A DNA stretch of 64,000 nucleotides from Macrostomum lignano (Eukaryota). This document shows positions 34,668 to 53,534 of this stretch, piece after piece; position 1 is the first letter of the stretch; each line of letters starts with the position of its first letter. The notes beneath the pieces are model-generated. The model was not told the origin of the DNA and searched no databases. It saw only the letters and a list, made by a program, of their open reading frames with translations. Made by a program: the position numbers and the translations under genes. The stretch spans positions 171,218 through 235,217 of the forward strand of contig NIVC01000343.1 in the NCBI GenBank assembly GCA_002269645.1, read 5' to 3'.

Positions 34668-35596
34668 TGTAGTGCATGCGCCCTTGTCAGTTGGCAGGGC
34701 GCGTTGCACTTTGGGGCTGGTTGGGGGGGTTGGCGGGCGTGGCAGGGTTTGGCCGCCGGCCGGGCTTTGCGCGTGCCCCTCCCCAGCCGTGCCCCTGCCC
34801 CGTGCTCAGGGCTGGTTGGCTGCGGCCGGGCCAGCTTTGGCGCGGGTGCTGCCCCTCCCCCCTTAGGCGGGGTTTTGATTGGCTGGGCCGGCGTGGTTTG
34901 TTTTGGTGAGCTTAGCCGGTGGGCCGTCTGCCCCAGGGTTTGGGTGCTATTTATGGTGCGACTCTGGCTCTTGCCCACCTCCTGCGTGCTTTTTGTGTTT
35001 TGGTGTGCTCCGAGAGTGCAAGCGCGAGACCTGATAAAAGAAACAGCAACATTAGCTACTTCGATAAAAGAAACAGCAACATTAGCTACTTCGATAAAAG
35101 AAACAGCAACATTAGCTACTTCGATAAAAGAAACACAATAGCCTAATTGAGAAGAGTCTTGGAGAATTAAGAAGAAGTCGGAAACTGCGCTTGAGACCTG
35201 CGAATAATAAACGGTGAACAGTCATCTGGCCACTGGTAAGCCGCCTGCTGTTTGAGTCCTTTCTTTTCGGGAAGCTTGCTAGGCCGAATTCTTGCCAGAG
35301 CGTCATAACGCCGGGAGACCATATAGCTTCTGTAGTACGGTACCGTTTACCATATATATTGCGTACGCCCTACGGTATAGAGAATAGAAGCACTCCAGAG
35401 TGTCACCACACCTCGAGCCGCAGCGTGAACTCTGAGTGTCACAACACCAGAGGGATCGAATTATTATCGCAGAGCGTCGCCACGCCTGCTCGTCGTATTC
35501 ATAAAAGTACAGACAGAGCGTCACAACGCCTGTTATATCACATATAATATATATTGTACTCGGGACTGGGCACCCAAGCCGACCCGGGTTACGACA
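34668..35596 (+). repeat. 5' LTR of element 2
   Basis: GC-rich U3 with reverse CCAAT (GATTGGCTG), TATA-like GCTATTTAT (~34946), a 30-bp triple repeat at ~35033-35130, AATAAA at 35206 and donor-like CTG|GTAAGC at 35235/35236. Confidence 0.95.
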
Positions 35597-35599
35597 AAT

Positions 35600-35617
35600 T
35601 TGCGCCCGAACAGGGAC
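35600..35617 (+). other. Primer-binding site for tRNA-Lys(UUU)
   Basis: TTGCGCCCGAACAGGGAC matches 17/18 of TGGCGCCCGAACAGGGAC, the complement of the tRNA-Lys3 3' end. It lies 3 nt after the LTR. Confidence 0.9.
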
Positions 35618-35841
35618 CCTGTCCCCAAAGATTGAAAGTCGGCTCAGTTGCTTTCTATGAAAATTGCTGTCATATTGTGAGCGTTTTTTCTTATTAAAAC
35701 GACTTTTGCTTATCGCCTGCGGCTACTGCCCTACCGCAAAAGACATTGATCACGGTGACAGACAACTGATTGGTTATCAGAGATTGATAGCTATCACCAC
35801 CTCAGAGTAAAGAGTAGCAACGGTATTCAGTGACTTCGGCC

Positions 35842-36762
35842 ATGGGTGATCAAGCTATGGACCAACTGATCGATGCGCTGGCTGCGCGCCTCAGAGCCAA
35901 CGCCGACCGAGCAGCGCCACGACTCTCGAAGCCGCCCAAGTACATACCAACGATGAATTTCAGCCTATGGCTGCAGAGTTTCAACGAGTACTGCGAGGCT
36001 GTCGGTATAGAAGAAGAAGCCAGGCGGCCGCACCTGATCGGCCTACTCGACCTCACAACAGCCTACGCTGCCGTTGATAAGCTGGACTTGGCAGACGACA
36101 TCGAGTACGGGGAATTCACGGATGCACTGCTGGCGCGGTTCACCATGAACAGAACAGCCCAGGACTACCGTTTTGAATTATCGAATCGAGATCAGCTAGA
36201 CAAGGAGTCTGTGGAGACCTACGGGGACGAGCTGCTGGAGTTGGTGCGCAATGCCTTCCCCACCGCGGATGCCGACACCAGGACAGAGCTGGCGAAAGAC
36301 AGATTTCTAAAAGGCGTTCGAGTAACCGACACTGTCCGAGAAAGACTGTACCTGCAGCAGCCGGCCAACCTCACCGATGCCATTCGAACAGTAAGACAAC
36401 TTGAAGCAGCCCAGAAGGCGTCTTCGACCCAGTCCAAAGCCAGACCCAGGGCTGGGCTGAATGCCTTTGCCACCGAAACGTCGACAGGTGACACCGGCAA
36501 AGACGAGGAGCTACGGCAACTGCGTCAAAAAGTAAAGGAAATGGAAGAAAAGATCCGACGGATGGAGCAGATCCAGCAGGGCCAGCAGGAGCCGCCCGAA
36601 CCCGGTCTTCAAGACAAGCAACAATCCAAGCAGGCGGCTCCGTCCAGCTCGAAGCAGCGTAGCGGTGTCAAGTGCTACAACTGCGGGGAGATAGGCCATC
36701 TCTCATTCCAGTGCCCAAAGCCGGGAAAAGGCAAGAGGGGCCCACCAGCTGGAGGCAAGTGA
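35842..36762 (+). CDS. gag: Gag of element 2
   Basis: First ATG at 35842. Capsid-like region and CCHC knuckle CYNCGEIGHLSFQC. Confidence 0.93.
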   Translation: MGDQAMDQLIDALAARLRANADRAAPRLSKPPKYIPTMNFSLWLQSFNEYCEAVGIEEEARRPHLIGLLDLTTAYAAVDKLDLADDIEYGEFTDALLARFTMNRTAQDYRFELSNRDQLDKESVETYGDELLELVRNAFPTADADTRTELAKDRFLKGVRVTDTVRERLYLQQPANLTDAIRTVRQLEAAQKASSTQSKARPRAGLNAFATETSTGDTGKDEELRQLRQKVKEMEEKIRRMEQIQQGQQEPPEPGLQDKQQSKQAAPSSSKQRSGVKCYNCGEIGHLSFQCPKPGKGKRGPPAGGK

Positions 36763-39700
36763 GCCCCTGCAATTCGTCAGCCTCCGAACAAGTCGTCATC
36801 TCATCTCATCATCATCAAACGCCCGGTACTGCGTCTCATCAGCCTCCAGTGTCCGGTACTGCGCCTCATCAGCATCCAGTGTCCGGTACTGCGCCTCATC
36901 AGCATTCAGTGTCCGGTACTGCGCCTCATCAGCCTCCAGCGTCCGGTACAGCGTCTCATCAGCCTCCAGTGTCCGGTACTGTGTCTCATCAGCATCCAGT
37001 GTCCGGTACAGTGCCTCATCAGCCTCCAGTGTCCGGTACTGCGCCTCATCAGCCTACAGTGTCCGGTACTGAGTCTCATCAGCATCCAGTGTCCGGTACT
37101 GTGTCTCATCAGCATCCAGTGTCCGGTACAGTGCCTCATCAGCCTCCAGTGTCCGGTACTGCGCCTCATCAGCATTCAGTGTCCGGTACTGCGCCTCATC
37201 AGCATCCAGTGTCCGGTACTGCGCCTCATCAGCCTCCAGCGTCCGGTACAGTGCCTCATCAGCATCCAGTGTCCGGTACTGCGCCTCATCAGCCTCCAGT
37301 GTCCGGTACAGTGCCTCATCAGCATCCAGTGTCCGGTACTGAGTCTCATCAGCATCCAGTGTCCGGTACTGCGCCTCATCAGCCTACAGTGTCCGGTACT
37401 GAGTCTCATCAGCATCCAGTGTCCGTTACAGTGCCTCATCAGCCTCCAGCGTCCGGTACTGCACCTCACCATCAACTAGCCGGTTTTGCACAGTCGCAGC
37501 GCCCAATCACCGTCAACGCACCTCAGTCAATTCAAATCAATCCTGCGTCGATATATGTTACGGCCTCAATCGCAGGGCGGAGGGTGAACGCGCTAGTGGA
37601 CTCGGGAGCTTCCTGCACCATTATCTCACGGGAAGCTTACCAAAGTATGCCGAAACAGAGCGTCAGAGATTTGGCCGGTGCTGAAGGCTACGTTAGCTTA
37701 GCAAACGGCAGCCCGATCGAAATCGAGAGAACAGTCCTGTTGCGACTGTCAATCGCTGATAAAGTAATAGATACTCCAGCCTTGGTAGTCAGCGGAGTGA
37801 AGTACCAACTGGTATTGGGATCCGACTTCTGCAGGGACAACAGTTGCGTCATCGACTACAAGACAGCTGTCTTTTCAGTGCAGGACACTGCAATCCCGTT
37901 CCGATGGCAAGCTGAGCGCCCGATCGTTTGCAGAATTTTGGCGACAAGGTCCAGCACAATACCGCCAGGTCATCAAGCAGTTCTGTCAGCAAGGCTGGAG
38001 AGCAAAGGACGACGGAACAGAGGGTGTGTCGGCCTAACTGAGAATCTCGGGGCGAACGATTTGGCAGCTGGCCGCTGGCTTGCTAAGGCCTTAGTGATCC
38101 CAAATAGCGGCAGCCGTCTGCCGACTCGACTCATCAATATCACGGAGGAGCCAGTCAGAATTCGCCAAGGTTGTACGCTCGGGTGGTTCTGCCCCCTAGA
38201 ATCCACCGAACCGTTGAACACCATCAAGCTCTTAGCCGTAGAGTCAGGAGACGATCCACAGGAAGAGCCGAAGGTCCAAGGCAGCAACAGCCCTTCGGAA
38301 GCAGACTTGCTACCAAACTCGTACGGCGACTGTGGACTGTCGACGAAAGAAGACGAAGAATTTAGAATCCTTGTCCGGAGTTACAGCGATGTGTTCACGA
38401 CCAAGCAGACTTCAAGCAAGTTAACTACCGTGGTGGAGCATGAAATTAACACCGAGAATGCGCGCCCAATCAAGATCCCACCGCGTCGTCTGCCTCCCCA
38501 CTTACAGCCAGAAGTAGATCGTCAAGTCAACGAGTTGCTGGAAAAGGGGCAGATCGAAGAAGCACAGTCACCATGGTGCTTTCCTTTGGTGTGTGTAAAG
38601 AAGAAATCAGGGGAAATGAGGATGTGCGTCGATTATCGGAAGTTGAATGAGGTCACCGTCAAGGATGCAGTGCCGATGCCGAGGGTCGATGATGCGCTGG
38701 AGGCAGTACACGGCGCCAAGATCTTCTCGACAATGGACCTTCACAGCGGGTTTTGGCAAGTAGGGGTGAGACCTCAGGATCAGGACAAGACGGCGTTTGC
38801 AGTGCCGCATCGCGGACAATTTCGATGGAAGGTTATGCCGTTCGGCTTAGTGAACAGCCCAGCAACATTCACCAGGTTGATGGCAGCCGTTCTGGACAAG
38901 CAGATGTGGAAAACCTGTCTCGTCTACATCGACGATCTACTGGTTTGGTCAACCGACGTGGATGAACACCTGAGAAGACTGGAGGAAATATTCAGCAAGT
39001 TGCGGCAAGCAAATTTGTGCCTGAAGCCCCAGAAGTGTCACTTTTTGCAAAAGCAAGTGAAATTTCTCGGTCACACGCTGTCGGCTGCTGGCATCAGTAC
39101 CGATGAGGAGAAAGTTCAAGAAGTGAAGAACTGGCCAACACCGCGATCCTCGACGGAGCTGCATTCATTCTTGGGCCTGTGTGGCTATTACAGAAAGTTT
39201 ATTAAAGATTTCGCCGCAATAGCAGCGCCTCTAACTCGATTGACAACAAAAGACGCAAAGTTTGAATGGAAAACGGAACAGCAGCTGGCGTTCGAAACAT
39301 TGAAGGAACGAATGACAAGTTCAGAGGTTATGGCTCATCCGGATTTCTCCCCGGATGCCGGAGAGTTTATCCTCGATACTGATGGCAGTTCGAAGATGGG
39401 CATAGGAGCGGTACTTTCTCAAGTCCAGCCAGATGGAGCAGAACGAGTGATCGCCTATGGGTCCAAGACACTAAATCAAGCCGAACGCAACTATTGTACG
39501 ACTCGTTTAGAACTACTAGCGGTTGTGACTTTCATCATGAAGTTCAGATACTATCTGCTTGGAAAAGCGTTCTGTCTGCGAACGGACCACAGCAGCCTGC
39601 AATGGTTAAAAAACTTCAGTGACGCCGAGGGACAGGTTGCTCGCTGGTTGGAGAAGTTGGCTCCATTTCAGTACCGCATCGTTCACAGACCAGGTCGATC

Positions 39701-41369
39701 GCATGGCAACGCGGACGCAATGTCGAGGAAGCCAGTACGGAGACATTTCGGAGCGGAGACATGCCCGGCATGTGCGCAGCATCCAGAAGGACTAAATGCA
39801 GTCGAATTTGAACGATTCTCAGCCGGCAATCTGGCAAGCGAGCAGGATCAAGACGACGATTTGAGAACAGTAAAGGAAGCGCTTGGCTCAAACCCAGTTC
39901 CAGATAAAAGCGAGACAGCTTGGAGTCCACTGGCTAGAGCCGTCTGGACTCGAAAAGACGACCTGGTGCTGCAAGAGAACGTGCTCCTTGTGAGAAACAA
40001 AGACAGGCGCGATGAGTATCAAATGGTGCTGCCACGAAAGGCATTGGATCGTATCTTGAAAACCCTACACGAGGGAGTGGGAGGTGGCCACATGGGCTTT
40101 GCGAAGACAAAATTTAAAGTGCTTCAGCGCTACTGGCGTCCAGGATTGTCTCGTGCCATTGAAGAATATATTCGCGGTTGTGCCACCTGCTGCAAGTCAA
40201 AGCCGGGCAAGCGAAACCGAGCACCCCTGCAACCGTTGACATTCGCAGCACCATTCGATTGCGTCATGATGGACATTGTCGGGCCGCTACCGCGGAGTAA
40301 GGCTGGAAACATTTATCTCCTGACAGTCCAAGATTCGTTTACGAAGTGGCCTGACGCGTACCCGCTTCGCAACCAGAAGGCAAGGACGGTGGCAAGGGCG
40401 CTTTTCAATCGATGGATTAGCCAGCATGGGTGTCCGAGTACTTTGCACAGCGACCAAGGAAGAAACTTCGAATCGCAAGTGATGCGCGAAATGTGCAGGA
40501 TACTCGAGATCCGCAAGTCCAGAACAACAGCTTATCATCCGAGCGGAAATGGACAAGTAGAAAACTTCAATAAAAGTTTAAAATCCATCCTCAAGTGCTG
40601 CCTAGAGGACTCAGGACGAAACGACTGGGAAGAATTCGTCAGCTCTGCGTTAATGGCGTACCGATCAAGCGTGCATCGAGCAACGGGTTATACTCCCCAC
40701 TACATGGTCTATGGCACGGAGATGCGCCTACCGATAGACTTGACTGACCAGCCGCCACAGCCTGTCGATTCGCATGTAAATTTCGTCAAGGAGCTAGAAG
40801 ACAAATTGCAGACAGCTCATCGCGCTGCTCGACAGCAGTTGAATACTTATCAGCGGCGACAGAAGGACCAGTACGATAAAAGAACCCGAGGATCCGATAT
40901 TCAGGAGGGTGACCATGTCTTCGTCTACAGCCCCGCCCTGAAACCAGACGAAGCCGCAAAGTTTCACGTAAGCTGGCTCGGCCCAGTGAAGGTGCTCGAA
41001 AGAAGATCCGAGGTGCTCTTCAAAGTGGAAAACCCGTCAAATCGTAAAAAGTCGAAGTTCGTCCACTTCAACAACCTCCGGAAGTTCGCTCGACCGGCCG
41101 CCCTGGAAACACCAGTTAGGACCGCGGCACCGCCGGAAGTGGTCGACGAGACGGACTCGGAGGCAGATGCGGAAGGCGAGACTTGGACTCGGCCTCAACT
41201 GATGCCGCCACAGGACGCTGAGGAAGTCGCCGAGGTGCTGGAAGAGCAGATGGAGTTGGTTGACGACCCGCAGCCTACTCATAACCCGGTGGAAGCTGCA
41301 CCTGAGCCTCGAAGGTCCGGAAGGTTGCGACGGCCGCCGGATCGCTACGGCCAGCCAGTGACATTCTAA
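36672..41369 (+). CDS. pol: Pol of element 2 (PR-RT-RNase H-IN) in the -1 frame relative to gag
   Basis: LVDSGAS, YIDD, DTDGSSKMGIG/RLE, HEGVGGGH..CATC, MDIVGP..SDQGRNFE..ENFN and GPY/F-like WLGPVKV. No in-frame stops. Confidence 0.97.
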   Translation: MLQLRGDRPSLIPVPKAGKRQEGPTSWRQVSPCNSSASEQVVISSHHHQTPGTASHQPPVSGTAPHQHPVSGTAPHQHSVSGTAPHQPPASGTASHQPPVSGTVSHQHPVSGTVPHQPPVSGTAPHQPTVSGTESHQHPVSGTVSHQHPVSGTVPHQPPVSGTAPHQHSVSGTAPHQHPVSGTAPHQPPASGTVPHQHPVSGTAPHQPPVSGTVPHQHPVSGTESHQHPVSGTAPHQPTVSGTESHQHPVSVTVPHQPPASGTAPHHQLAGFAQSQRPITVNAPQSIQINPASIYVTASIAGRRVNALVDSGASCTIISREAYQSMPKQSVRDLAGAEGYVSLANGSPIEIERTVLLRLSIADKVIDTPALVVSGVKYQLVLGSDFCRDNSCVIDYKTAVFSVQDTAIPFRWQAERPIVCRILATRSSTIPPGHQAVLSARLESKGRRNRGCVGLTENLGANDLAAGRWLAKALVIPNSGSRLPTRLINITEEPVRIRQGCTLGWFCPLESTEPLNTIKLLAVESGDDPQEEPKVQGSNSPSEADLLPNSYGDCGLSTKEDEEFRILVRSYSDVFTTKQTSSKLTTVVEHEINTENARPIKIPPRRLPPHLQPEVDRQVNELLEKGQIEEAQSPWCFPLVCVKKKSGEMRMCVDYRKLNEVTVKDAVPMPRVDDALEAVHGAKIFSTMDLHSGFWQVGVRPQDQDKTAFAVPHRGQFRWKVMPFGLVNSPATFTRLMAAVLDKQMWKTCLVYIDDLLVWSTDVDEHLRRLEEIFSKLRQANLCLKPQKCHFLQKQVKFLGHTLSAAGISTDEEKVQEVKNWPTPRSSTELHSFLGLCGYYRKFIKDFAAIAAPLTRLTTKDAKFEWKTEQQLAFETLKERMTSSEVMAHPDFSPDAGEFILDTDGSSKMGIGAVLSQVQPDGAERVIAYGSKTLNQAERNYCTTRLELLAVVTFIMKFRYYLLGKAFCLRTDHSSLQWLKNFSDAEGQVARWLEKLAPFQYRIVHRPGRSHGNADAMSRKPVRRHFGAETCPACAQHPEGLNAVEFERFSAGNLASEQDQDDDLRTVKEALGSNPVPDKSETAWSPLARAVWTRKDDLVLQENVLLVRNKDRRDEYQMVLPRKALDRILKTLHEGVGGGHMGFAKTKFKVLQRYWRPGLSRAIEEYIRGCATCCKSKPGKRNRAPLQPLTFAAPFDCVMMDIVGPLPRSKAGNIYLLTVQDSFTKWPDAYPLRNQKARTVARALFNRWISQHGCPSTLHSDQGRNFESQVMREMCRILEIRKSRTTAYHPSGNGQVENFNKSLKSILKCCLEDSGRNDWEEFVSSALMAYRSSVHRATGYTPHYMVYGTEMRLPIDLTDQPPQPVDSHVNFVKELEDKLQTAHRAARQQLNTYQRRQKDQYDKRTRGSDIQEGDHVFVYSPALKPDEAAKFHVSWLGPVKVLERRSEVLFKVENPSNRKKSKFVHFNNLRKFARPAALETPVRTAAPPEVVDETDSEADAEGETWTRPQLMPPQDAEEVAEVLEEQMELVDDPQPTHNPVEAAPEPRRSGRLRRPPDRYGQPVTF
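36830..37470 (+). repeat. 30-bp coding tandem repeat (~21 x PHQ(H/P)PVSGT(A/V)) at the start of pol
   Basis: Unit CCTCATCAGC(A/C)TCCAGTGTCCGGTACTGCG, in frame upstream of the protease. Confidence 0.95.
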
Positions 41370-41792
41370 TGGGTTACTCGTCATCGTGAAGTCTCATCAG
41401 TTTCATATGCGATTATCGTTAAAAGCCAGAAAAATATTTCGCGAATGCGTCATTCATCATAAATACGAGTACTTCATCAATGCATCATTCATCATGAGTA
41501 CGAGCAGTTCGCCAATGCGTCATTCAAGAAATTCGTTAATGCGTCATTAAGTCATTTTAATCGCATCTTCATCGAAGTTTTGACGAGAATCAAATTTTGC
41601 CTACAAAATCTATGCATCGGTGGAGGGTATTCGGACTGGCATCCGGTGACAACTCGAATTTGCGCTGGGACTTTACGATGCAGGGTACCGCGGGCCACGG
41701 TCCGAGGAGATGACGCTCTGGCAAGAGGGGAGCAGGAGTAGAATCTGGAGTCAGGGACAGTGTGTCGCAGGTTTGAGTACGTTGCTTTGCAG

Positions 41793-42701
41793 ATGGATTT
41801 GTACGCTGTCCTCCAAGTCGGACACACAGCCGAACGTGCCGAGATCAGGCGAGTCTATCGACAGCTAGCGCTCTTCTGGCACCCGGACAAGCACCCGGAC
41901 AAGGAACTCGCAGGACGCCGTTTCCAAGAAATTGAGACTGCTGGTAGAATTCTATCGTGTCCATATCGCCGAGCGATGTACGACCAGTTGGGCGATAAAT
42001 CAATCCCGTATGACGAGGCTGTAACCTTCGCAATGACGTTCATACCTCCTACTGGTGTAAGAATGCCGGCGGACATCGAAGAGGGAGTACAGCAAAGGCG
42101 AGAAGTTGAAGAAGCTCAGCGCAAGGAAGCTGGTCTCAGGCAGGGGAGACAGGGACAGAGGAACGATTACGAAGCGGATGGCTACATTCTAATCTCGGAC
42201 GACGATGAGAGCGAGGAGTCGGATGAGTGTAGCATCGACACAGAAGAAGAAGACGAGTTGCTGGCATCGGATGGCTCCTCCGGAAGTAGTGAGTCAGAAG
42301 CTATGGAGATCGATGTACCGGAAAGCAAGGAGGTTGTCTCACATCGCGCGTCGGGAGCAATATGGGATGATGAAAAGCTGTCGTTATCGGCAGCTGCGCG
42401 TCAGCTCCGCCATCGTTTGATGAAGCATATTTTGGCTGGACAGTCGGACGGAATCGTGTCAGTGCTCACGGCTATGAGACGGCTGTTTCGAGACTCGCAG
42501 CGAGAACCGAGGAGCGCACTGTCAATGGTCCTGCTGCAGGCGTTGTTCTTCATCCGCAGAGATATCGCTCCGGTAAAGCGTCAGAGAGCAGGCCGCCGTT
42601 ACTGGTCTAGGCAGAGTTTTGATTGTTTCGTCCGACAGCTCTGTCACGAGCTCATCCCGCTTTCGGTTTGCGCCGGCCCGGCAGGCTGCTCGAGGTCCTG
42701 A
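41793..42701 (+). CDS. ORF3 of element 2: DnaJ/Hsp40 J-domain accessory protein (302 aa)
   Basis: MDLYAVLQV...EIRRVYRQLALFWHPDKHPDKELAGRRFQEIETAGRILSCPYRRAMYDQLG fits the J-domain consensus, with HPD at 41880. It is followed by an acidic linker and a basic helical C-terminus. It lies between pol and the PPT/3' LTR. The ATG is directly preceded by TTGCTTTGCAG. Confidence 0.92.
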   Translation: MDLYAVLQVGHTAERAEIRRVYRQLALFWHPDKHPDKELAGRRFQEIETAGRILSCPYRRAMYDQLGDKSIPYDEAVTFAMTFIPPTGVRMPADIEEGVQQRREVEEAQRKEAGLRQGRQGQRNDYEADGYILISDDDESEESDECSIDTEEEDELLASDGSSGSSESEAMEIDVPESKEVVSHRASGAIWDDEKLSLSAAARQLRHRLMKHILAGQSDGIVSVLTAMRRLFRDSQREPRSALSMVLLQALFFIRRDIAPVKRQRAGRRYWSRQSFDCFVRQLCHELIPLSVCAGPAGCSRS

Positions 42702-42844: not shown

Positions 42845-43530
42845 GGGGAATGGCTCAGCGGCTTCTGCGGCGGCCACCTGCGCTTCCTGCCGGCTTCTGC
42901 GGCGGCCACGTGCGCTTCCTGCCGGCTTCTGCGGCGGCCACCTGCGCTTCCTGCCGGCTTCTGCGGCGGCCACCTGCGCTTCCTGCCGGCTTCTGCGGCG
43001 GCCTCGTGCGCTTCCTGCCGGCTTCTGCGGCGGCCACGTGCGCTTCCCGCCCGGCCATATGCGCGCCTCGCCCGGCCGCCTTCGCATCTTGCCGGCCACC
43101 TGCGTGCCCTGCCGGCCATCTGCGCGTCCTGTCGGCAACCTGCGCTTCCTGCCCGGCCATCTGCGCGTCCTGTCGGCAACCTGCGCTTCCCGCCCGGCCA
43201 TCTGCGCTTCCTGTCGGCAACCTGCGCTTCCCGCCCGGCCATCTGCGCTTCCTGCCGGCCACCTGCGTGCCCTGCCGGCCATCTGCACTTCCTGCCGGCC
43301 ACCTGCGTGTCCTGCCGGCCACTTGCGCGTCCTGCCGGCCACCTGCGCGTCCCGCCCGGCCACCTGCGTGCCCTGCCGGCCATCTGCACTTCCTGCCGGC
43401 CATCTGCGCTTCCTGCCGGCCACCTGCGCGTCCCGCCCGGCCACCTGCGTGCCCTGCCGGCCATCTGCACTTCCTGCCGGCCACCTGCGCGTCCCGCCCG
43501 GCCACCTGCGCGTCCTGCCGGCCACCTGCG
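42845..43530. repeat. GC-rich degenerate tandem repeats (GGCCACCTGCGCTTCCTGCC core) in the 3' UTR of element 2
   Basis: Direct inspection. Open in most frames because of its composition. Confidence 0.9.
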
Positions 43531-45414
43531 ATGGTTTTCTGTGGCGCCAGCTTTGATGTAAAGCCTATTCCGTGCCCCGTGGTTGCTCTGACGAACTTGC
43601 GTGCAGAAAACCAGTATTTTTTTTCATATTTCTTTTGCGGCAACCATTTTTCTTTTTCCCCTTTGCATTAGTGTGTTTCCAATTTTTTTGTTGTTTTTGA
43701 TTTTTTTGCTTTGTTATTTAAAAAATTTGGAATCCCAGTCGCCGTGGTTCGAGCTCCGCCCTGTTTTTTTTAGGAGGGGAGGGTGTAGTGCATGCGCCCT
43801 TGTCAGTTGGCAGGGCGCGTTGCACTTTGGGGCTGGTTGGGGGGGTTGGCGGGCGTGGCAGGGTTTGGCCGCCGGCCGGGCTTTGCGCGTGCCCCTCCCC
43901 AGCCGTGCCCCTGCCCCGTGCTCAGGGCTGGTTGGCTGCGGCCGGGCCAGCTTTGGCGCGGGTGCTGCCCCTCCCCCCTTAGGCGGGGTTTTGATTGGCT
44001 GGGCCGGCGTGGTTTGTTTTGGTGAGCTTAGCCGGTGGGGCCGTCTGCCCCAGGGTTTGGGTGCTATTTATGGTGCGACTCTGGCTCTTGCCCACCTCCT
44101 GCGTGCTTTTTGTGTTTTGGTGTGCTCCGAGAGTGCAAGCGCGAGACCTGATAAAAGAAACAGCAACATTAGCTACTTCGATAAAAGAAACAGCAACATT
44201 AGCTACTTCGATAAAAGAAACAGCAACATTAGCTACTTCGATAAAAGAAACACAATAGCCTAATTGAGAAGAGTCTTGGAGAATTAAGAAGAAGTCGGAA
44301 ACTGCGCTTGAGACCTGCGAATAATAAACGGTGAACAGTCATCTGGCCACTGGTAAGCCGCCTGCTGTTTGAGTCCTTTCTTTTCGGGAAGCTTGCTAGG
44401 CCGAATTCTTGCCAGAGCGTCATAACGCCGGGAGACCATATAGCTTCTGTAGTACGGTACCGTTTACCATATATATTGCGTACGCCCTACGGTATAGAGA
44501 ATAGAAGCACTCCAGAGTGTCACCACATCTCGAGCCGCAGCGTGAACTCTGAGTGTCACAACACCAGAGGGATCGAATTATTATCGCAGAGCGTCGCCAC
44601 GCCTGCTCGTCGTATTCATAAAAGTACAGACAGAGCGTCACAACGCCTGTTATATCACATATAATATATATTGTACTCGGGACTGGGCACCCAAGCCGAC
44701 CCGGGTTACGACAGAAGCACTTGCAATATTTTAACTGCCTATTTAAGCTTCTCAAAATGACGAGTCACATGCGCAGACTTCTTAGGGCTGGAAAGGCATC
44801 ATGGATATCAGGGATGGCTAAGCAGGTTAGTCTCGAGAACCCAACAGTAATGACTACACAAGACCTTTTGCACTTATAAATTTAGTGCCCTCGTAGGGAC
44901 GGTTGCAGCACTAAGAGAGCGATATTCCTGTTACGAGACGTATTACGAGAAGGCTGGTATTAATAAAGACTTTAATGGACTTATTGATTTGCCTTAAAGA
45001 TTTCATCTCCACTGAAAACTTGAGGGTTAAAGAGTTTCAAGAGTGAGCAAGTTAAACATAAACTGTTTATCGCTGACTAAAATATTTGATGAAAAAGCAC
45101 GCATTTTTTGCTCACCAAAGTTGTAGTGACAGTGCAGCTTAATACATGAAATTTTAGGATTGATAGCTGGGCAGTTTTTGTCATGCAAGTCCGTAGCTGG
45201 CGACTGGACTCTTATGCCCTTCCTTTCTGCTAACCAAAGCAAGAGGAAAACCTGAGAGCCAATGACACGATGCCAAGCTGTAGTATCCTACTTGTAGTTT
45301 GATAGGATTTGCAGTGGTACCTGAGAGCTGCAGTACCTGTTCTCACTCAATCACTCACTCAATCACTCACTCACGGAGAACACAATTGTTAGCGGTTCAC
45401 AAGGTTCTAGTGAA

Positions 45415-49256: not shown

Positions 49257-52200
49257 TACAATACTGTTGAAACATAAATACGGTACGACTGAAGTACTCA
49301 ATACTTGTACTTAGTACTCACGCCACAACATCCTCCCCACATGAGATTCCCCTAAGTAATCGCATGTCAGTTCAGTGCATCATACACGGTTCAGTTCGGG
49401 TAGCGCATTGGCGGGCGACGCTCGCGCTCTGACCTTCTCAGCACCGGCAGGGGTGCCGGCGGTTCCCCAGCGAGATCATCAGGCGGTCCTGGCGGATCCA
49501 CCTCCGGGCCGCCGCCACCTTCGTCGAGCTGCGCGTCGCCGTCGTCGTCGCTGCCTTTGCCCGGTCCGGCCGGCACGCAGCGCCGCAGGTGCCACCGCTT
49601 GCCGTTTTCGAGCAGCACAGTTGTCTTGAATCGCTTGCGAACCCGGAACGGCCCGGCGAGCTTCGGCTCCAGCTTGCCAGGTGCCACCGGCTTGGAGATG
49701 CGCACCCAGGAGCCGTCTTGGATGACCGCGGTCCGCGTCGCCGATGCATGCCGCCGACGGTCGGTGTCGCTCTTTGCTCGCTGCTTTGCCGTGGCGACCC
49801 GGTCATGAGCCGACGTCGGCCGCTTGGCTTCCGAGTCCGGTTGGAGTGCGAGCAGCAGGGTGCGCATTGGTCGGCCAGTCATGAGCTCGTGTGGACTCGA
49901 ACCCGTGACGTGCGTTGGGGTCGCCCTATAGGCCGCGAAGACAGCTCGGACGGCCTTGCAGAAGCTCCACCCGGCGACCAAGTGCGCTGTCACGCCCTCG
50001 CCGAGAGTGCGGTTGAATCGCTCGACGTTGCCGTTTTGTTCTGGACAGTACACTGCCGTTCGCTTGTGTTCGATCGCCAGGCTCGCCAGGTACTCGTCGA
50101 ACTCGCGGCCGAACTGGGGTCCATTGTCGGTTGTGATGCTTTTCGGGATGCCCCACCTCGACCAGATGACCTCAAGGAAGTCGACGACTACCTTGGTTGT
50201 GACCGATTCTACGAGCGCGACTTCTGGCCATCGGCTAAACTGATCGATGAGCACGATCGCGAATCGCTGGTGACGCGGCGCCGCTCTGAACTCTCCGCAG
50301 ATATCGAGTTGCAGCTCCTCCCAGGCTCCTGCTGGCGTGCTGGTGATCGTCATGGGCGGAACGCTTGGTCGAGACGCCTTGCCAGCCAGCGCGCAGGCCG
50401 TACAGTCCTTCACCGCCGACTCGATGCCCTTGTCGATACCGGGCCACCAAGCTGCAGATCGGCACCGCTGCTTGGTCCGCACAATTCCGTGGTGGCCTTC
50501 GTGCGCCATATTGAGAACCCGGTTCTGCAGTGTAGCTGGGATGACGGTAGCCTGGCCACGAGCCACGCAGCCGTCGCCGAACAGGTAGAGTTCGTCCTTT
50601 GCGCGGTAGTAGGCCTGCAGCTCCGGTGCCAGTTGTTTGGACGCCGGCCACCCCTCCTTGATGAAGCGAGAAACCGCTTGCAGGACTTTGTCGCTGGCCG
50701 TTTCTTGGCGCACCTCGTCCAGGTTGACTGCTGGAGCCAGCTGCGCCATCAGGATTCGGCCGATCTCCTGGTCGTCCGTGTTGCTCTGCGGATCCTCCTG
50801 GACGTTTGGTTGTTGCCTAGACAGCAGGTCGGCGATAGTGTTGTCTCGGCCGCGCACGTAGCGAATGGTCACCAGGGGGTATGCCCTAAGACGCTCTGTC
50901 CACCGAAGGATGCGCAGCGGCCGGACTCCTTGACTGCCCGCGGTCAGCAGAGTGCTCAGCGTGCTATGGTCTGTGTAGACGGTCACTGGCCGGCCATAGG
51001 TGAACAGGTGCCACTTCTCGACCGCCCATACGACAGCCAGCGCCTCCTTCTCCCCGACCGAGTAGTTCCGTTCCGGTGAAGTGAGGGACCGCGAGCTGTA
51101 GGCAATCGGGTGCTCCTCGCCGAGCTGTATCTGTGCCAGCACGGCGCCGATGCCGTGGGCACTGGCGTCGCATCGGATGATTGTCTCGGATTTGGGGTCA
51201 AATGCCTTTAGGACTGGCGCCATGGTCAGCTGCCTCTTGATTTTCTGGAAAGCGCCATCTTGCTCTGGACCCCACGACCACGGCTCATCTTTGCGTAGCA
51301 GCCGGCGGATCGGCTCCGTGGTTTCCGAGTAGGCATGGACGAACAGGCTGTAGAAGTTTGTCGCTCCGAGGAATGCAGCTGCCTCCTTGGTGTTACTCGG
51401 CTGAGGCGTCTCCTTGATTGCCTTCACGTACGAGTCGATCGCTTGGATGCCGTTGCCGGAAATGCGGAAACCATGGAAGTCCACTGCCGGTTGGGCGAAG
51501 ACGCACTTATCGTTGAGCACGATGTTGTTCTCTCGAAGACGTTCTAGTGTCCGGCTCAGGTTGTCGTCGTGCTCCTTCTTTGTCTTGCCGTGCACCAGGA
51601 TGTCATCGACTGCGCTGACCGTTCCTGGCAGGCCTTGCAGGATGCGAGCCATGGCCTTCTGGAAGAACCCTGCCGCGCTGCTGAGGCCGAACGGGACGCG
51701 GCAGAACTGGTACAGGCCTTCGTCCGTGATAAAAGCTGTTAGGTATCGACTGTCGTGGTGAAGTTCGAACTGGAGGTACCCTGTCTTCATGTCCAGCTTC
51801 GAGAAGACTTGTGATCCACGGAACTCGGCCGCCAACTCATCGATAGTCGGTGTTGGGTAGGCGTCCGCGACGATCGCCTTGTTGACGTCTCGTAGGTCGA
51901 TGCAGAGTCGGATTCTACCGTCGCTCTTGGGGGCGATGACCATGTTGCTCACCCAGGCACTGGCGCTGATCTTCTCGATGATTTTCTCCGCCTCCATTCG
52001 GTCAAGTTCCGCTTTTACCGCCTCCTTCATGGCGAGCGGGATCTTGCGGCGAGCCTGGATCACCGGGTGGGCATCCAGTTTCAACTTCGGTCGGTGCACG
52101 ATGCCCTTGGCTCGCCTGATTGGCCCGAAGAGGTCCTTGAAGCTGTCCTGGGGTTTTGAGCCCTCGTCACCGAGATGGTTGATTTGAAGCGACACGCCAA

Positions 52201-53534
52201 ACTTCGGGAAGTCGGAGCGCCCAAGAAGGCTTGAACTGCCCTCTGCGACTTGAAAACAGACTGAGGCCGTCTTGTCCTTGAACGTGATCGGGAGCGTCGC
52301 TGTCCCGTAGGTCCTGATGTGCGAGCCGCCGTAGGCCACGAGCCGTGCTGGAGTTCCGCTTCCCTTGGTTGCGTGTCGTCGAACTCTCTGGAAGTCGGAC
52401 ATGCTGATCACCGACACGGAGGCACCGCTGTCCAGCGTCAGCGTCAGCAGCTCGTCGCGGACCGCGCATTCGATGTTGTGGACGGCAGTCGGATTCTGGT
52501 TCGCGACTTGCAGGATGGTGCTCACCTCCTCGCCGACTGTTGCCACCGTCTTGCTTCGGCATACAGCGGCAAAGTGGTTCGGCTTATTGCAGTTGTTGCA
52601 CTTTTTTCCCATTGCTGGGCACTTGTGCTCCTTGCTGTAGTCGCCGCCGCATCGCCTGCACTTCTCGCTGTCCTTGCGCGTTTTGGGCTTGGCTCTGACT
52701 TTCTGCTTTGAGACGGCGTGCACTGTCTTTTGAGACGCCCCTGATGTGCCGTTGAGGACCTTGGCTTCGTTGATGGCTGTCTCGATTTGGTTGGCGAGCT
52801 GCAGGGACTTCTCCAGTGTCAGGTCGTCTGGTTCCATCAGCAGCCTCTCACGGATACGTGGCATGCACGTTTTCTCGATAAGCTGATCGCGGACCATCTC
52901 CTTCGTCAGGTCCTTGAACGCGCAATCGGCCGCGAGCTGCTGCAGATCTCTGACGAACTGCTGCACCGGCTCCCCTGGTCGCTGCTCCCTGCACCGAAAC
53001 CTGTAGCGAGCTCCGATGACGCTCTTGTTCGGCACGAAAATTTTGTCCAGTTCTTCGAGCAGCTTCTTCATGTCGTTCGCCTCCACGCTTTCCGCCTGCC
53101 GTTGGCCTTCCGGCCCGAGGCAGTGTCGAAGGACGGCCATTTGTCTCGCCTCCGACATTTTGTCCAGTTCCGTTGCTGTTGAATAGATCGCGAACTGACT
53201 TTTCCACCTTGGCCACGGGCAGCTTGGCTCGCCCGGGCTAGCCAGGTACGGCGTTGGTGGGTTGAGACTGAAGTCTGCCATCTTCGTCGCCAGAGTTGTG
53301 TATTGAACGCGTGGGTTTTTGTGCGAGCGAGAGTTGAGAAATAAGAATTGTGGAGTCTCGACTGACTCCGCCGCTTTATATTTGTTAGTCAATGAAGCGT
53401 GCACGTTGGGTGTATACACCTGGAAGATTGGCTATATGTTACGCAATGATTTGAGTTGAATACAATACTGTTGAAACATAAATACGGTACGACTGAAGTA
53501 CTCAATACTTGTACTTAGTACTCACGCCACAACA
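49257..53534 (-). mobile_element. Ty3/gypsy LTR retrotransposon 3 (Mag-like), 3' LTR split by an inversion
   Basis: 5' LTR 53534-53294 (TGTTG start). PBS TGGCGACGAAGATGG is a 14/15 match to tRNA-Ser(GCU). PPT GTGGGGAGGA. Proximal 3' LTR piece 49330-49257. TSD ACCAC at 53535-39 (reverse complement) and 48755-59. Confidence 0.95.
49391..53281 (-). CDS. Single gag-pol polyprotein of element 3 (~1296 aa, start MADFSLNPP)
   Basis: The ATG overlaps the PBS end. Knuckles CRRCGG..HKC / CNNCNKPNH..VC, LDSGAS, RT AVDD, RNase H DASAHG/EKE/TDH, HEGHHG..CTAC, DDE and GPF. Confidence 0.95.
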   Translation of the reverse strand: MADFSLNPPTPYLASPGEPSCPWPRWKSQFAIYSTATELDKMSEARQMAVLRHCLGPEGQRQAESVEANDMKKLLEELDKIFVPNKSVIGARYRFRCREQRPGEPVQQFVRDLQQLAADCAFKDLTKEMVRDQLIEKTCMPRIRERLLMEPDDLTLEKSLQLANQIETAINEAKVLNGTSGASQKTVHAVSKQKVRAKPKTRKDSEKCRRCGGDYSKEHKCPAMGKKCNNCNKPNHFAAVCRSKTVATVGEEVSTILQVANQNPTAVHNIECAVRDELLTLTLDSGASVSVISMSDFQRVRRHATKGSGTPARLVAYGGSHIRTYGTATLPITFKDKTASVCFQVAEGSSSLLGRSDFPKFGVSLQINHLGDEGSKPQDSFKDLFGPIRRAKGIVHRPKLKLDAHPVIQARRKIPLAMKEAVKAELDRMEAEKIIEKISASAWVSNMVIAPKSDGRIRLCIDLRDVNKAIVADAYPTPTIDELAAEFRGSQVFSKLDMKTGYLQFELHHDSRYLTAFITDEGLYQFCRVPFGLSSAAGFFQKAMARILQGLPGTVSAVDDILVHGKTKKEHDDNLSRTLERLRENNIVLNDKCVFAQPAVDFHGFRISGNGIQAIDSYVKAIKETPQPSNTKEAAAFLGATNFYSLFVHAYSETTEPIRRLLRKDEPWSWGPEQDGAFQKIKRQLTMAPVLKAFDPKSETIIRCDASAHGIGAVLAQIQLGEEHPIAYSSRSLTSPERNYSVGEKEALAVVWAVEKWHLFTYGRPVTVYTDHSTLSTLLTAGSQGVRPLRILRWTERLRAYPLVTIRYVRGRDNTIADLLSRQQPNVQEDPQSNTDDQEIGRILMAQLAPAVNLDEVRQETASDKVLQAVSRFIKEGWPASKQLAPELQAYYRAKDELYLFGDGCVARGQATVIPATLQNRVLNMAHEGHHGIVRTKQRCRSAAWWPGIDKGIESAVKDCTACALAGKASRPSVPPMTITSTPAGAWEELQLDICGEFRAAPRHQRFAIVLIDQFSRWPEVALVESVTTKVVVDFLEVIWSRWGIPKSITTDNGPQFGREFDEYLASLAIEHKRTAVYCPEQNGNVERFNRTLGEGVTAHLVAGWSFCKAVRAVFAAYRATPTHVTGSSPHELMTGRPMRTLLLALQPDSEAKRPTSAHDRVATAKQRAKSDTDRRRHASATRTAVIQDGSWVRISKPVAPGKLEPKLAGPFRVRKRFKTTVLLENGKRWHLRRCVPAGPGKGSDDDGDAQLDEGGGGPEVDPPGPPDDLAGEPPAPLPVLRRSERERRPPMRYPN

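Follow-up and report, generated by a model that had tools for sequence, protein, structure and literature searches.

A third gene in a flatworm Ty3/gypsy clade encodes a J-domain protein with a recurrent SIM-like motif, a possible SUMO-directed Hsp70 co-chaperone

The third-ORF slot of animal LTR retrotransposons can hold cargo other than env, as described for LTR elements of bdelloids, in which ORF3 encodes a GDSL esterase and a DEDDy exonuclease (PMC5408684). A J-domain joined to a docking motif is found in the large T antigen of polyomaviruses, where it is followed by a disordered region carrying an LxCxE motif and a nuclear localization signal (NLS); T antigen is reported to recruit Hsc70 and to need both the J-domain and LxCxE against pRB (PMC11720896). 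Among the papers found, the known example of counter-silencing encoded by a transposable element (TE) is the plant protein VANC21 of VANDAL21 (PMC8616336). Chromatin J-proteins of plants include the activating SUVH1/3-DNAJ1/2 (PMC12902148) and the repressing SILENZIO (PMC8616336). In Drosophila, though not in Macrostomum lignano, it has been shown that Su(var)2-10 deposits SUMO, to which SetDB1/Wde is recruited via SUMO-interacting motifs (SIMs), leading to H3K9me3 and piRNA silencing (10.1101/533091).

The gene described here, ORF3, lies in a 64,000-nt stretch of Macrostomum lignano DNA (contig NIVC01000343.1, positions 171,218 to 235,217 of the forward strand; hereafter the window). Like the bdelloid ORF3s, as far as these are described, it is an accessory gene captured into the position of the third ORF of an animal LTR element and is modular between lineages. 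Unlike them, the flatworm cargo consists of a J-domain, a linear motif and a helical domain of no known family, to which chromodomain and TatD-like parts were added within a single clade. As a works-like model, T antigen offers the same succession of an HPD-bearing J-domain and a disordered region carrying a linear motif for docking to the host; ORF3, however, has neither LxCxE nor an origin-binding or helicase domain, carries a SIM-like motif instead, and has only the generic J-domain in common with it. The relief of silencing by a TE accessory protein, known for VANC21, is for ORF3 a proposed role, and VANC21 differs in coming from a plant DNA transposon and acting on DNA methylation, whereas the only Pfam domain of ORF3 is DnaJ. 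SUVH1/3-DNAJ1/2 and SILENZIO are likewise described as cases in which a reader directs a J-domain to repressively marked chromatin, as proposed for ORF3, but these are host-encoded, have a separate reader and respond to DNA methylation, while the proposed reader of the TE-encoded ORF3 is part of the same chain. SIM-type docking on SUMOylated proteins would be shared with SetDB1/Wde and Su(var)2-10 (10.1101/533091) and with SUMO-targeted ubiquitin ligases (PMC12751080); the effector of ORF3 would be an Hsp70 activator rather than a methyltransferase or ligase. Our literature search found no LTR element with a J-domain ORF3. Neither 'dnaj' nor 'hsp40' occurs in the main texts of PMC8775202 and of PMC12801592, which treats the LTR elements of M. 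lignano and whose supplements 2-5, or the earlier classification that it cites, could carry such an annotation.

The ORF3-bearing element is a complete, young Ty3/gypsy LTR retrotransposon, with LTRs, a target-site duplication, a polypurine tract, gag, and pol in the order PR-RT-RH-IN (Table 1). Its LTRs are 99.8% identical over 931 columns (1 mismatch, 1 gap), and ORF3 is situated between pol and the 3' LTR. The host genome (G000) contains at least 22 copies with 98-100% identity over ORF3 residues 1-292. ORF3 reads as 315 aa in 13 of the 22 copies, as 344 aa in four and as 496-566 aa in three, and stops at residue 179 in one. The 302-aa reading is that of the window copy only (1/22), which departs from the common reading after residue 292, so that its last ten residues are unrepresentative; among eight presumed-RNA runs, the contigs of the seven that cover this place all differ from the window beyond that residue. 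The pyrimidine-rich stretch directly preceding the ORF3 start codon is a possible splice acceptor. AG stands immediately 5' of the ATG in 8 of 15 ORF3 frames, with TTGCAG a few bases upstream in some others; the contigs of the eight runs covering ORF3 and pol showed neither a joint nor a loose end at this possible acceptor, which is uninformative.

Table 1. Features of the ORF3-bearing element and of ORF3 (positions within the window)
Feature	Position	Strand	Remarks
5' LTR, TG...CA ends	34668..35596	+	preceded by target-site duplication GAAG
gag (retrotransposon gag, zinc knuckle)	35842..36762	+	
pol from first ATG (RT, RNase H, integrase)	37647..41369	+	
Pyrimidine-rich stretch ending CAG, directly 5' of ORF3 ATG	41775..41792	+	possible splice acceptor
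ORF3	41793..42701	+	302 aa in window copy, 315 aa in most copies
J-domain, residues 1-64, HPD at 30-32	41793..41984	+	pLDDT ~97
HPDKHPDK, 12-nt unit twice	41880..41903	+	ordinary J-domain loop
SIM-like core YILI, residues 131-134	42183..42194	+	
Ser/acidic tract with CK2-type sites S135 and T150, in predicted disordered region	42195..42260	+	
Basic five-helix domain, residues 200-292 in window copy	42390..42668	+	common to all ORF3 families
Basic loop between helices 3 and 4, RRDIAPVKRQRAGRR	42555..42599	+	KRQR at 42576-42587 (residues 262-265)
3' LTR	43784..44713	+	polypurine tract before, GAAG after

Several further features of the element and its surroundings were recorded. The pol frame is open upstream of its ATG through a DSG protease motif and a 30-bp tandem array into the end of gag (36640-37647), the array (22 copies, 36805-37468) preceding the protease motif; the overlap with the gag end and the array suggest frameshift expression with a repeated 10-residue spacer. 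The primer-binding site (35597-35620) starts AATTTGCGCCCG, not TGG, and may resemble a tRNA-Lys site, a primer type associated with the Gmr1/Osvaldo cluster; one pattern search for this likeness gave no match, and no primer tRNA was found. The 5' LTR has no full three-unit heat-shock element, and nothing therefore connects it with the heat-induced families of PMC12801592. The 3' untranslated region (42859-43530) is filled by GC-rich tandem arrays with units of 32 bp and 20 bp, whose length varies between copies. The window also contains, at 49391-53281(-), another gypsy element that is unrelated to this one and has its gag-pol in one frame of 1,296 aa. A related element, L050, is 90% identical to that of the window in the RT region (dS 0.19), with ~75% identity in the integrase and a dS of 1.0-1.7 in ORF3, a divergence pattern that suggests recombination swapping the 3' cassette.

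ORF3 has a three-part build of J-domain, disordered acidic linker and basic five-helix domain. Its sole Pfam match is DnaJ (residues 2-64, E 5e-18), and the J fold together with the HPD tripeptide places it among class C J-domain proteins; the modelled J-domain superposes on solved ones with an rmsd of ~1 Å. Family-specific helices follow up to about residue 121 (AlphaFold2 is confident for residues 1-121), the linker is predicted to be disordered (pLDDT <50 for residues 124-161 and 163-193), and the five-helix domain spans residues 200-306 of the model with pLDDT mostly ~95. The pTM of 0.42 for the full protein leaves the relative placement of the domains undefined. An env-type ORF3 was rejected, there being no transmembrane stretch (maximal hydropathy over 19 residues 1.33) and no Pfam domain apart from DnaJ. 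The double HPDK to which the earlier note drew attention is indeed present but appears to carry no meaning: the loop that follows HPD has the length usual in cellular J-proteins, which rules out a meaningful duplication, and HPDKHPD recurs in the homologues L031 and P0027 and in the cellular protein P0002. DNAJC11, considered as donor because of an apparent likeness, was unsupported (~5 bits), and no donor emerges from the J-domain tree (support 83). An unrelated multi-copy frame of 1,449 aa (L126:1226-5572(-), L127:4245-8591(+)) also begins with a J-domain, followed by SIASDELSEE and a long unassigned sequence.

The basic domain, when folded alone, is modelled with a pLDDT of 87.5 and a pTM of 0.81, and its net charge is +6 to +15 in all 15 homologues. 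The structural comparison of the ORF3 tail proposed in the earlier note thus found a confident AlphaFold2 fold, for which Foldseek returned no match at E 0.001 in the PDB or among viral models, an absence that is not decisive. The best VIA-align match (Z 7.9, rmsd 2.1 over 79 residues) was to generic helical bundles, and designed helical proteins came out on top when the domain profile was compared with the PDB. A DnaJ-X domain (PF14308, Djp1/Caj1-type) was indicated by an atlas feature score of 0.86, to be taken as a lead only; Pfam gave no DnaJ-X match in 15 members at E <=10, and there was none in the host genome. As a selected module without a known family, the domain is noteworthy whatever the purpose of ORF3.

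Classical monopartite NLSs follow the consensus K[KR]x[KR]. The basic string containing KRQR that had been described as NLS-like exists, but it forms a loop inside this folded domain, and of 15 aligned homologues just two have K[KR]x[KR], so that a conserved classical NLS was rejected. The loop itself has 5-9 K/R residues in all 15 homologues and conserved flanks (R256-D257 and W271). We infer that it is part of a nucleic-acid-binding surface; it may nonetheless contribute to nuclear import.

ORF3 is a conserved third gene of a flatworm Ty3/gypsy clade. Further ORF3 families in the host genome share ~25-60% identity and are mostly located directly downstream of gag-pol; one related ORF3 has a sequence identical to that of an M. 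lignano protein at NCBI. The C-terminal-domain profile retrieved eight proteins at E <=1e-10 among 1.84 billion, of which two are gene models of M. lignano and the remaining six come from Logan or JGI; within the P0001 cluster, the full-length protein is P0027. A metagenome scan with P0036 for outside context gave 146 pattern matches, none of them confirmed, and thus placed none of the seven Logan/JGI homologues in an LTR element. In the RT-RNase H tree, the eleven ORF3-bearing elements form one clade (support 98/99) relative to four other elements of the same genome used as outgroups, one of which (L045) stands beside an ORF3 fragment. That fragment (L045:3438-9900) lies ~2 kb downstream of a pol outside the ORF3 clade, an arrangement that may reflect nesting or the acquisition of ORF3 by another lineage. 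F1+F1b, F4+F4b and F5+F5b+F7 come out as groups in the C-domain tree. ORF3 dN/dS was 0.08-0.34 in 13 of 14 comparisons, the remaining one being saturated (values are rough at dS 1.0-3.6), and 0.15 and 0.17 in the linker. Codon comparisons thus indicate that ORF3 is under purifying selection.

Parallel SIMs are described as hydrophobic-hydrophobic-X-hydrophobic cores followed by acidic or phosphorylated residues, with position 4 contributing most to selectivity and position 2 next (PMC12751080). The earlier note had reported a SIM-like motif and an acidic tract after the J-domain, and both strings were found, even though the consensus that it quoted, V/I-x-V/I-V/I, has no strict match in the window linker. 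YILI nevertheless agrees with the parallel-SIM pattern: it is a four-residue core with at least three hydrophobic residues and V/I/L at position 4, it is followed by the acidic and phosphorylatable SDDDESEE with a CK2-type site (S135-D-D-D), and it falls in a region predicted to be disordered.

The motif derives its weight from its recurrence across lineages and not from the window linker alone, for which 5,000 shuffles gave borderline values (p=0.024 with a relaxed and p=0.10 with a loose pattern). One frame was counted for each of 17 lineages, leaving aside near-duplicates (L032, L034, L048, L055, L056), decayed fragments (L033, L045, L053, L054, L109, L110) and P0035, which is without a full linker. 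The pattern x-[VI]-x-[VI]-[SED]3 was found in 13 of the 17, against 0.88 expected from shuffled linkers; the relaxed pattern was found in 11 (0.48 expected) and the strict V/I/L pattern in three (0.28 expected). Since the patterns were written after the sequences had been inspected and the lineages are related, these counts describe recurrence and yield no true P value. Examples are YILISDDDE, YIWISDDEE, CIIISDDET, YITISDSDE, FVVISDDEG, IVVISDDED, VVTIEDETE and QVEISSESE, and P0027 has three such motifs in tandem, recalling multi-SIM readers. Positions 2 and 4 are V/I, positions 1 and 3 vary and acid follows, in keeping with parallel-SIM selectivity (partly built into the pattern). Among the excluded fragments, L033 and L109 have the motif, and L053 has a degenerate GYVVTDEE beside its chromodomain. 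Conservation among ORF3 homologues, on which the earlier claim hinged, thus held at ~25-60% identity and in linkers of 34-126 residues. As background, 136 other long frames with 72,152 residues in total gave seven matches (five of them one repeated gag-pol string), and 25 cellular J-proteins with 10,470 residues gave two; x[VI]x[VI] preceded none of 156 acidic runs in these two sets.

SIMs are loose motifs, and SIM-like strings arise easily (PMC12751080), so the motif could have arisen neutrally in a linker that is acidic and has hydrophobic residues scattered through it, a reading with which the shuffles of the window linker agree. It is nonetheless very improbable, considering the presence of the motif in 13 of 17 lineages separated by near-saturated synonymous distances and by differences in linker length, and its absence before the background acidic runs. 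The linkers of 16 of the 17 lineages contain 18-43% D/E, and this long acidic tract next to a J-domain, together with the basic domain and a chromodomain variant described below, could also make ORF3 a histone co-chaperone like DNAJC9, which binds H3-H4 (PMC11775587), or a trans-activator, the linker binding histones or transcription co-factors and the hydrophobic patch being part of that surface. We regard this as quite improbable: similarity to DNAJC9-type proteins does not extend beyond the J-domain, and V/I at fixed spacing before an acidic run exceeds what bulk acidity needs.

A third possibility, improbable in our estimate, is that the motif serves as a LIR/AIM (ATG8-binding) or as a different acidic-hydrophobic dock of a cytoplasmic ORF3, which could, for instance, shield particles from autophagy. 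SIMs and LIRs have one pocket type in common (PMC12751080), and [WFY]xx[LIV] overlaps 8 of 13 relaxed matches, YILI included. The other five, such as IVVI, VVTI and VIEI, are however without an aromatic residue. LIRs habitually have acid ahead of the aromatic, whereas here acid follows the core (3-8 of 8 residues) rather than preceding it (1-2 of 5), and the chromodomain branch points to the nucleus.

SUMO is encoded by the host genome as a single-frame gene (G000:C1551, locus L071). Complexes predicted between it and ORF3 residues 118-157 scored 0.45, 0.45 and 0.46 in three runs (best of three controls 0.01), which the tool rates as weak support; the partner had a pLDDT of 51-52 and the runs shared at least 85% of contacts, no interface being given. 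Among 78 solved pairs 51 reached the mark for this score, as did 2 of 108 mismatched ones, with only 5 of the 78 passing at <=0.60; a value of 0.45 thus falls in a range where, by the tool's own rating, predictions are wrong more often than they are right, its calibration does not cover peptides, and the prediction may recall solved SUMO-SIM complexes. On balance, the modelled linker motif probably binds SUMO.

The four lineages in which the motif is absent from the frames examined are three that bear a chromodomain (L047, L051, P0037) and family F7, which is without HPD; the 13 carriers are all from families that retain HPD. The chromodomain (Pfam E 1e-12) occupies the linker slot, and its best PDB matches are Swi6 and HP1. 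The residues of its aromatic cage are Y/W/V in L047, in which Val replaces the third aromatic, and F/W/F in L051. This family of J-domain, chromodomain and helical domain (L047:2499-3482(-), L051-L054, P0037) is represented in the host genome by 18 copies that are nearly identical over 320 residues or more. An HP1/Swi6-type chromodomain in the slot of the motif in a sister branch therefore indicates chromatin. In F7, both HPD and the acidic linker have been lost, and a C-terminal extension shares homology with the TatD-like extension found in the sister families; with 17 matches, 10 of them with open frames of 571-575 aa, F7 is multi-copy, so that the J-domain and SIM pair is dispensable in that family. 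The complementarity of motif, chromodomain and HPD loss amounts to two data points, because the two losses are single events. The TatD-like domain follows the helical domain in one ORF3 sub-clade (L046:1575-2930(-), L063:1058-2140(-), L100-L103, L114, L115; Pfam E 1e-7 to 1e-8; RT support 99/96).

The earlier note had proposed a nuclear J-protein that brings Hsp70 to SUMOylated complexes. Apart from the classical NLS, which did not hold up, this idea is consistent with the recurrence of the motif, the predicted disorder, the CK2-type site, the host SUMO gene, the weakly supported complex and the chromodomain of the sister branch, and we tentatively favour ORF3 as a SUMO-directed Hsp70 co-chaperone on chromatin. 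In such a mechanism, the YILI core and the CK2-phosphorylated acidic run would probably add a parallel strand to SUMO, while the basic domain would keep ORF3 on nucleic acid. HPD would then fire Hsp70 on the docked SUMOylated complex and loosen it, by analogy with the J-domain and neighbouring linear motif of T antigen. If the target complex were the silencing machinery on the element, transcription would be relieved; the chromodomain branch would reach the same chromatin via methylated histone H3. Anti-silencing would be the likeliest purpose of ORF3, yet the chain in its entirety is doubtful. It is rather unlikely that the clade as a whole encodes a SUMO-targeted Hsp70 activator stripping SUMOylated piRNA/heterochromatin complexes off the element, its aiming module being swapped between SIM and HP1-type chromodomain. 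The effect on silencing might have either sign, because plant J-proteins act both ways.

All the evidence for SUMO is blind to purpose, and the motif might bind SUMO for another step: steering of the integration complex or of element RNA in the nucleus, particle remodelling, or self-limitation. LTR-element chromodomains are known from integration-targeting chromoviruses, which offers a precedent, and the basic domain of ORF3 could bind RNA; SILENZIO, moreover, is described as a repressive J-protein (PMC8616336). The chromodomain here sits on ORF3, however, and not on the integrase, and an HPD J-domain beside a docking motif, to argue from T antigen, would fit disassembly better than tethering. 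We therefore consider such another step unlikely.

A SIM-aimed J-protein would, if true, represent a novel means of countering transcriptional silencing that depends on SUMO and would establish a further class of effectors targeted by SUMO, and the anti-silencing reading would add an animal anti-silencing factor made of chaperone components. M. lignano is a transgenic model with LTR reporters (PMC12801592), which makes the idea directly testable, and ORF3s with a SIM, a triple SIM, a chromodomain, a TatD fusion or no HPD form a natural series for comparison. Further SIM-like strings, outside the patterns used here, are present at the ORF3 C-terminus of L056 and L058 (DVLVLDAEEED) and after the helical domain in L046 and L063 (DVLDLD, DILDLE).
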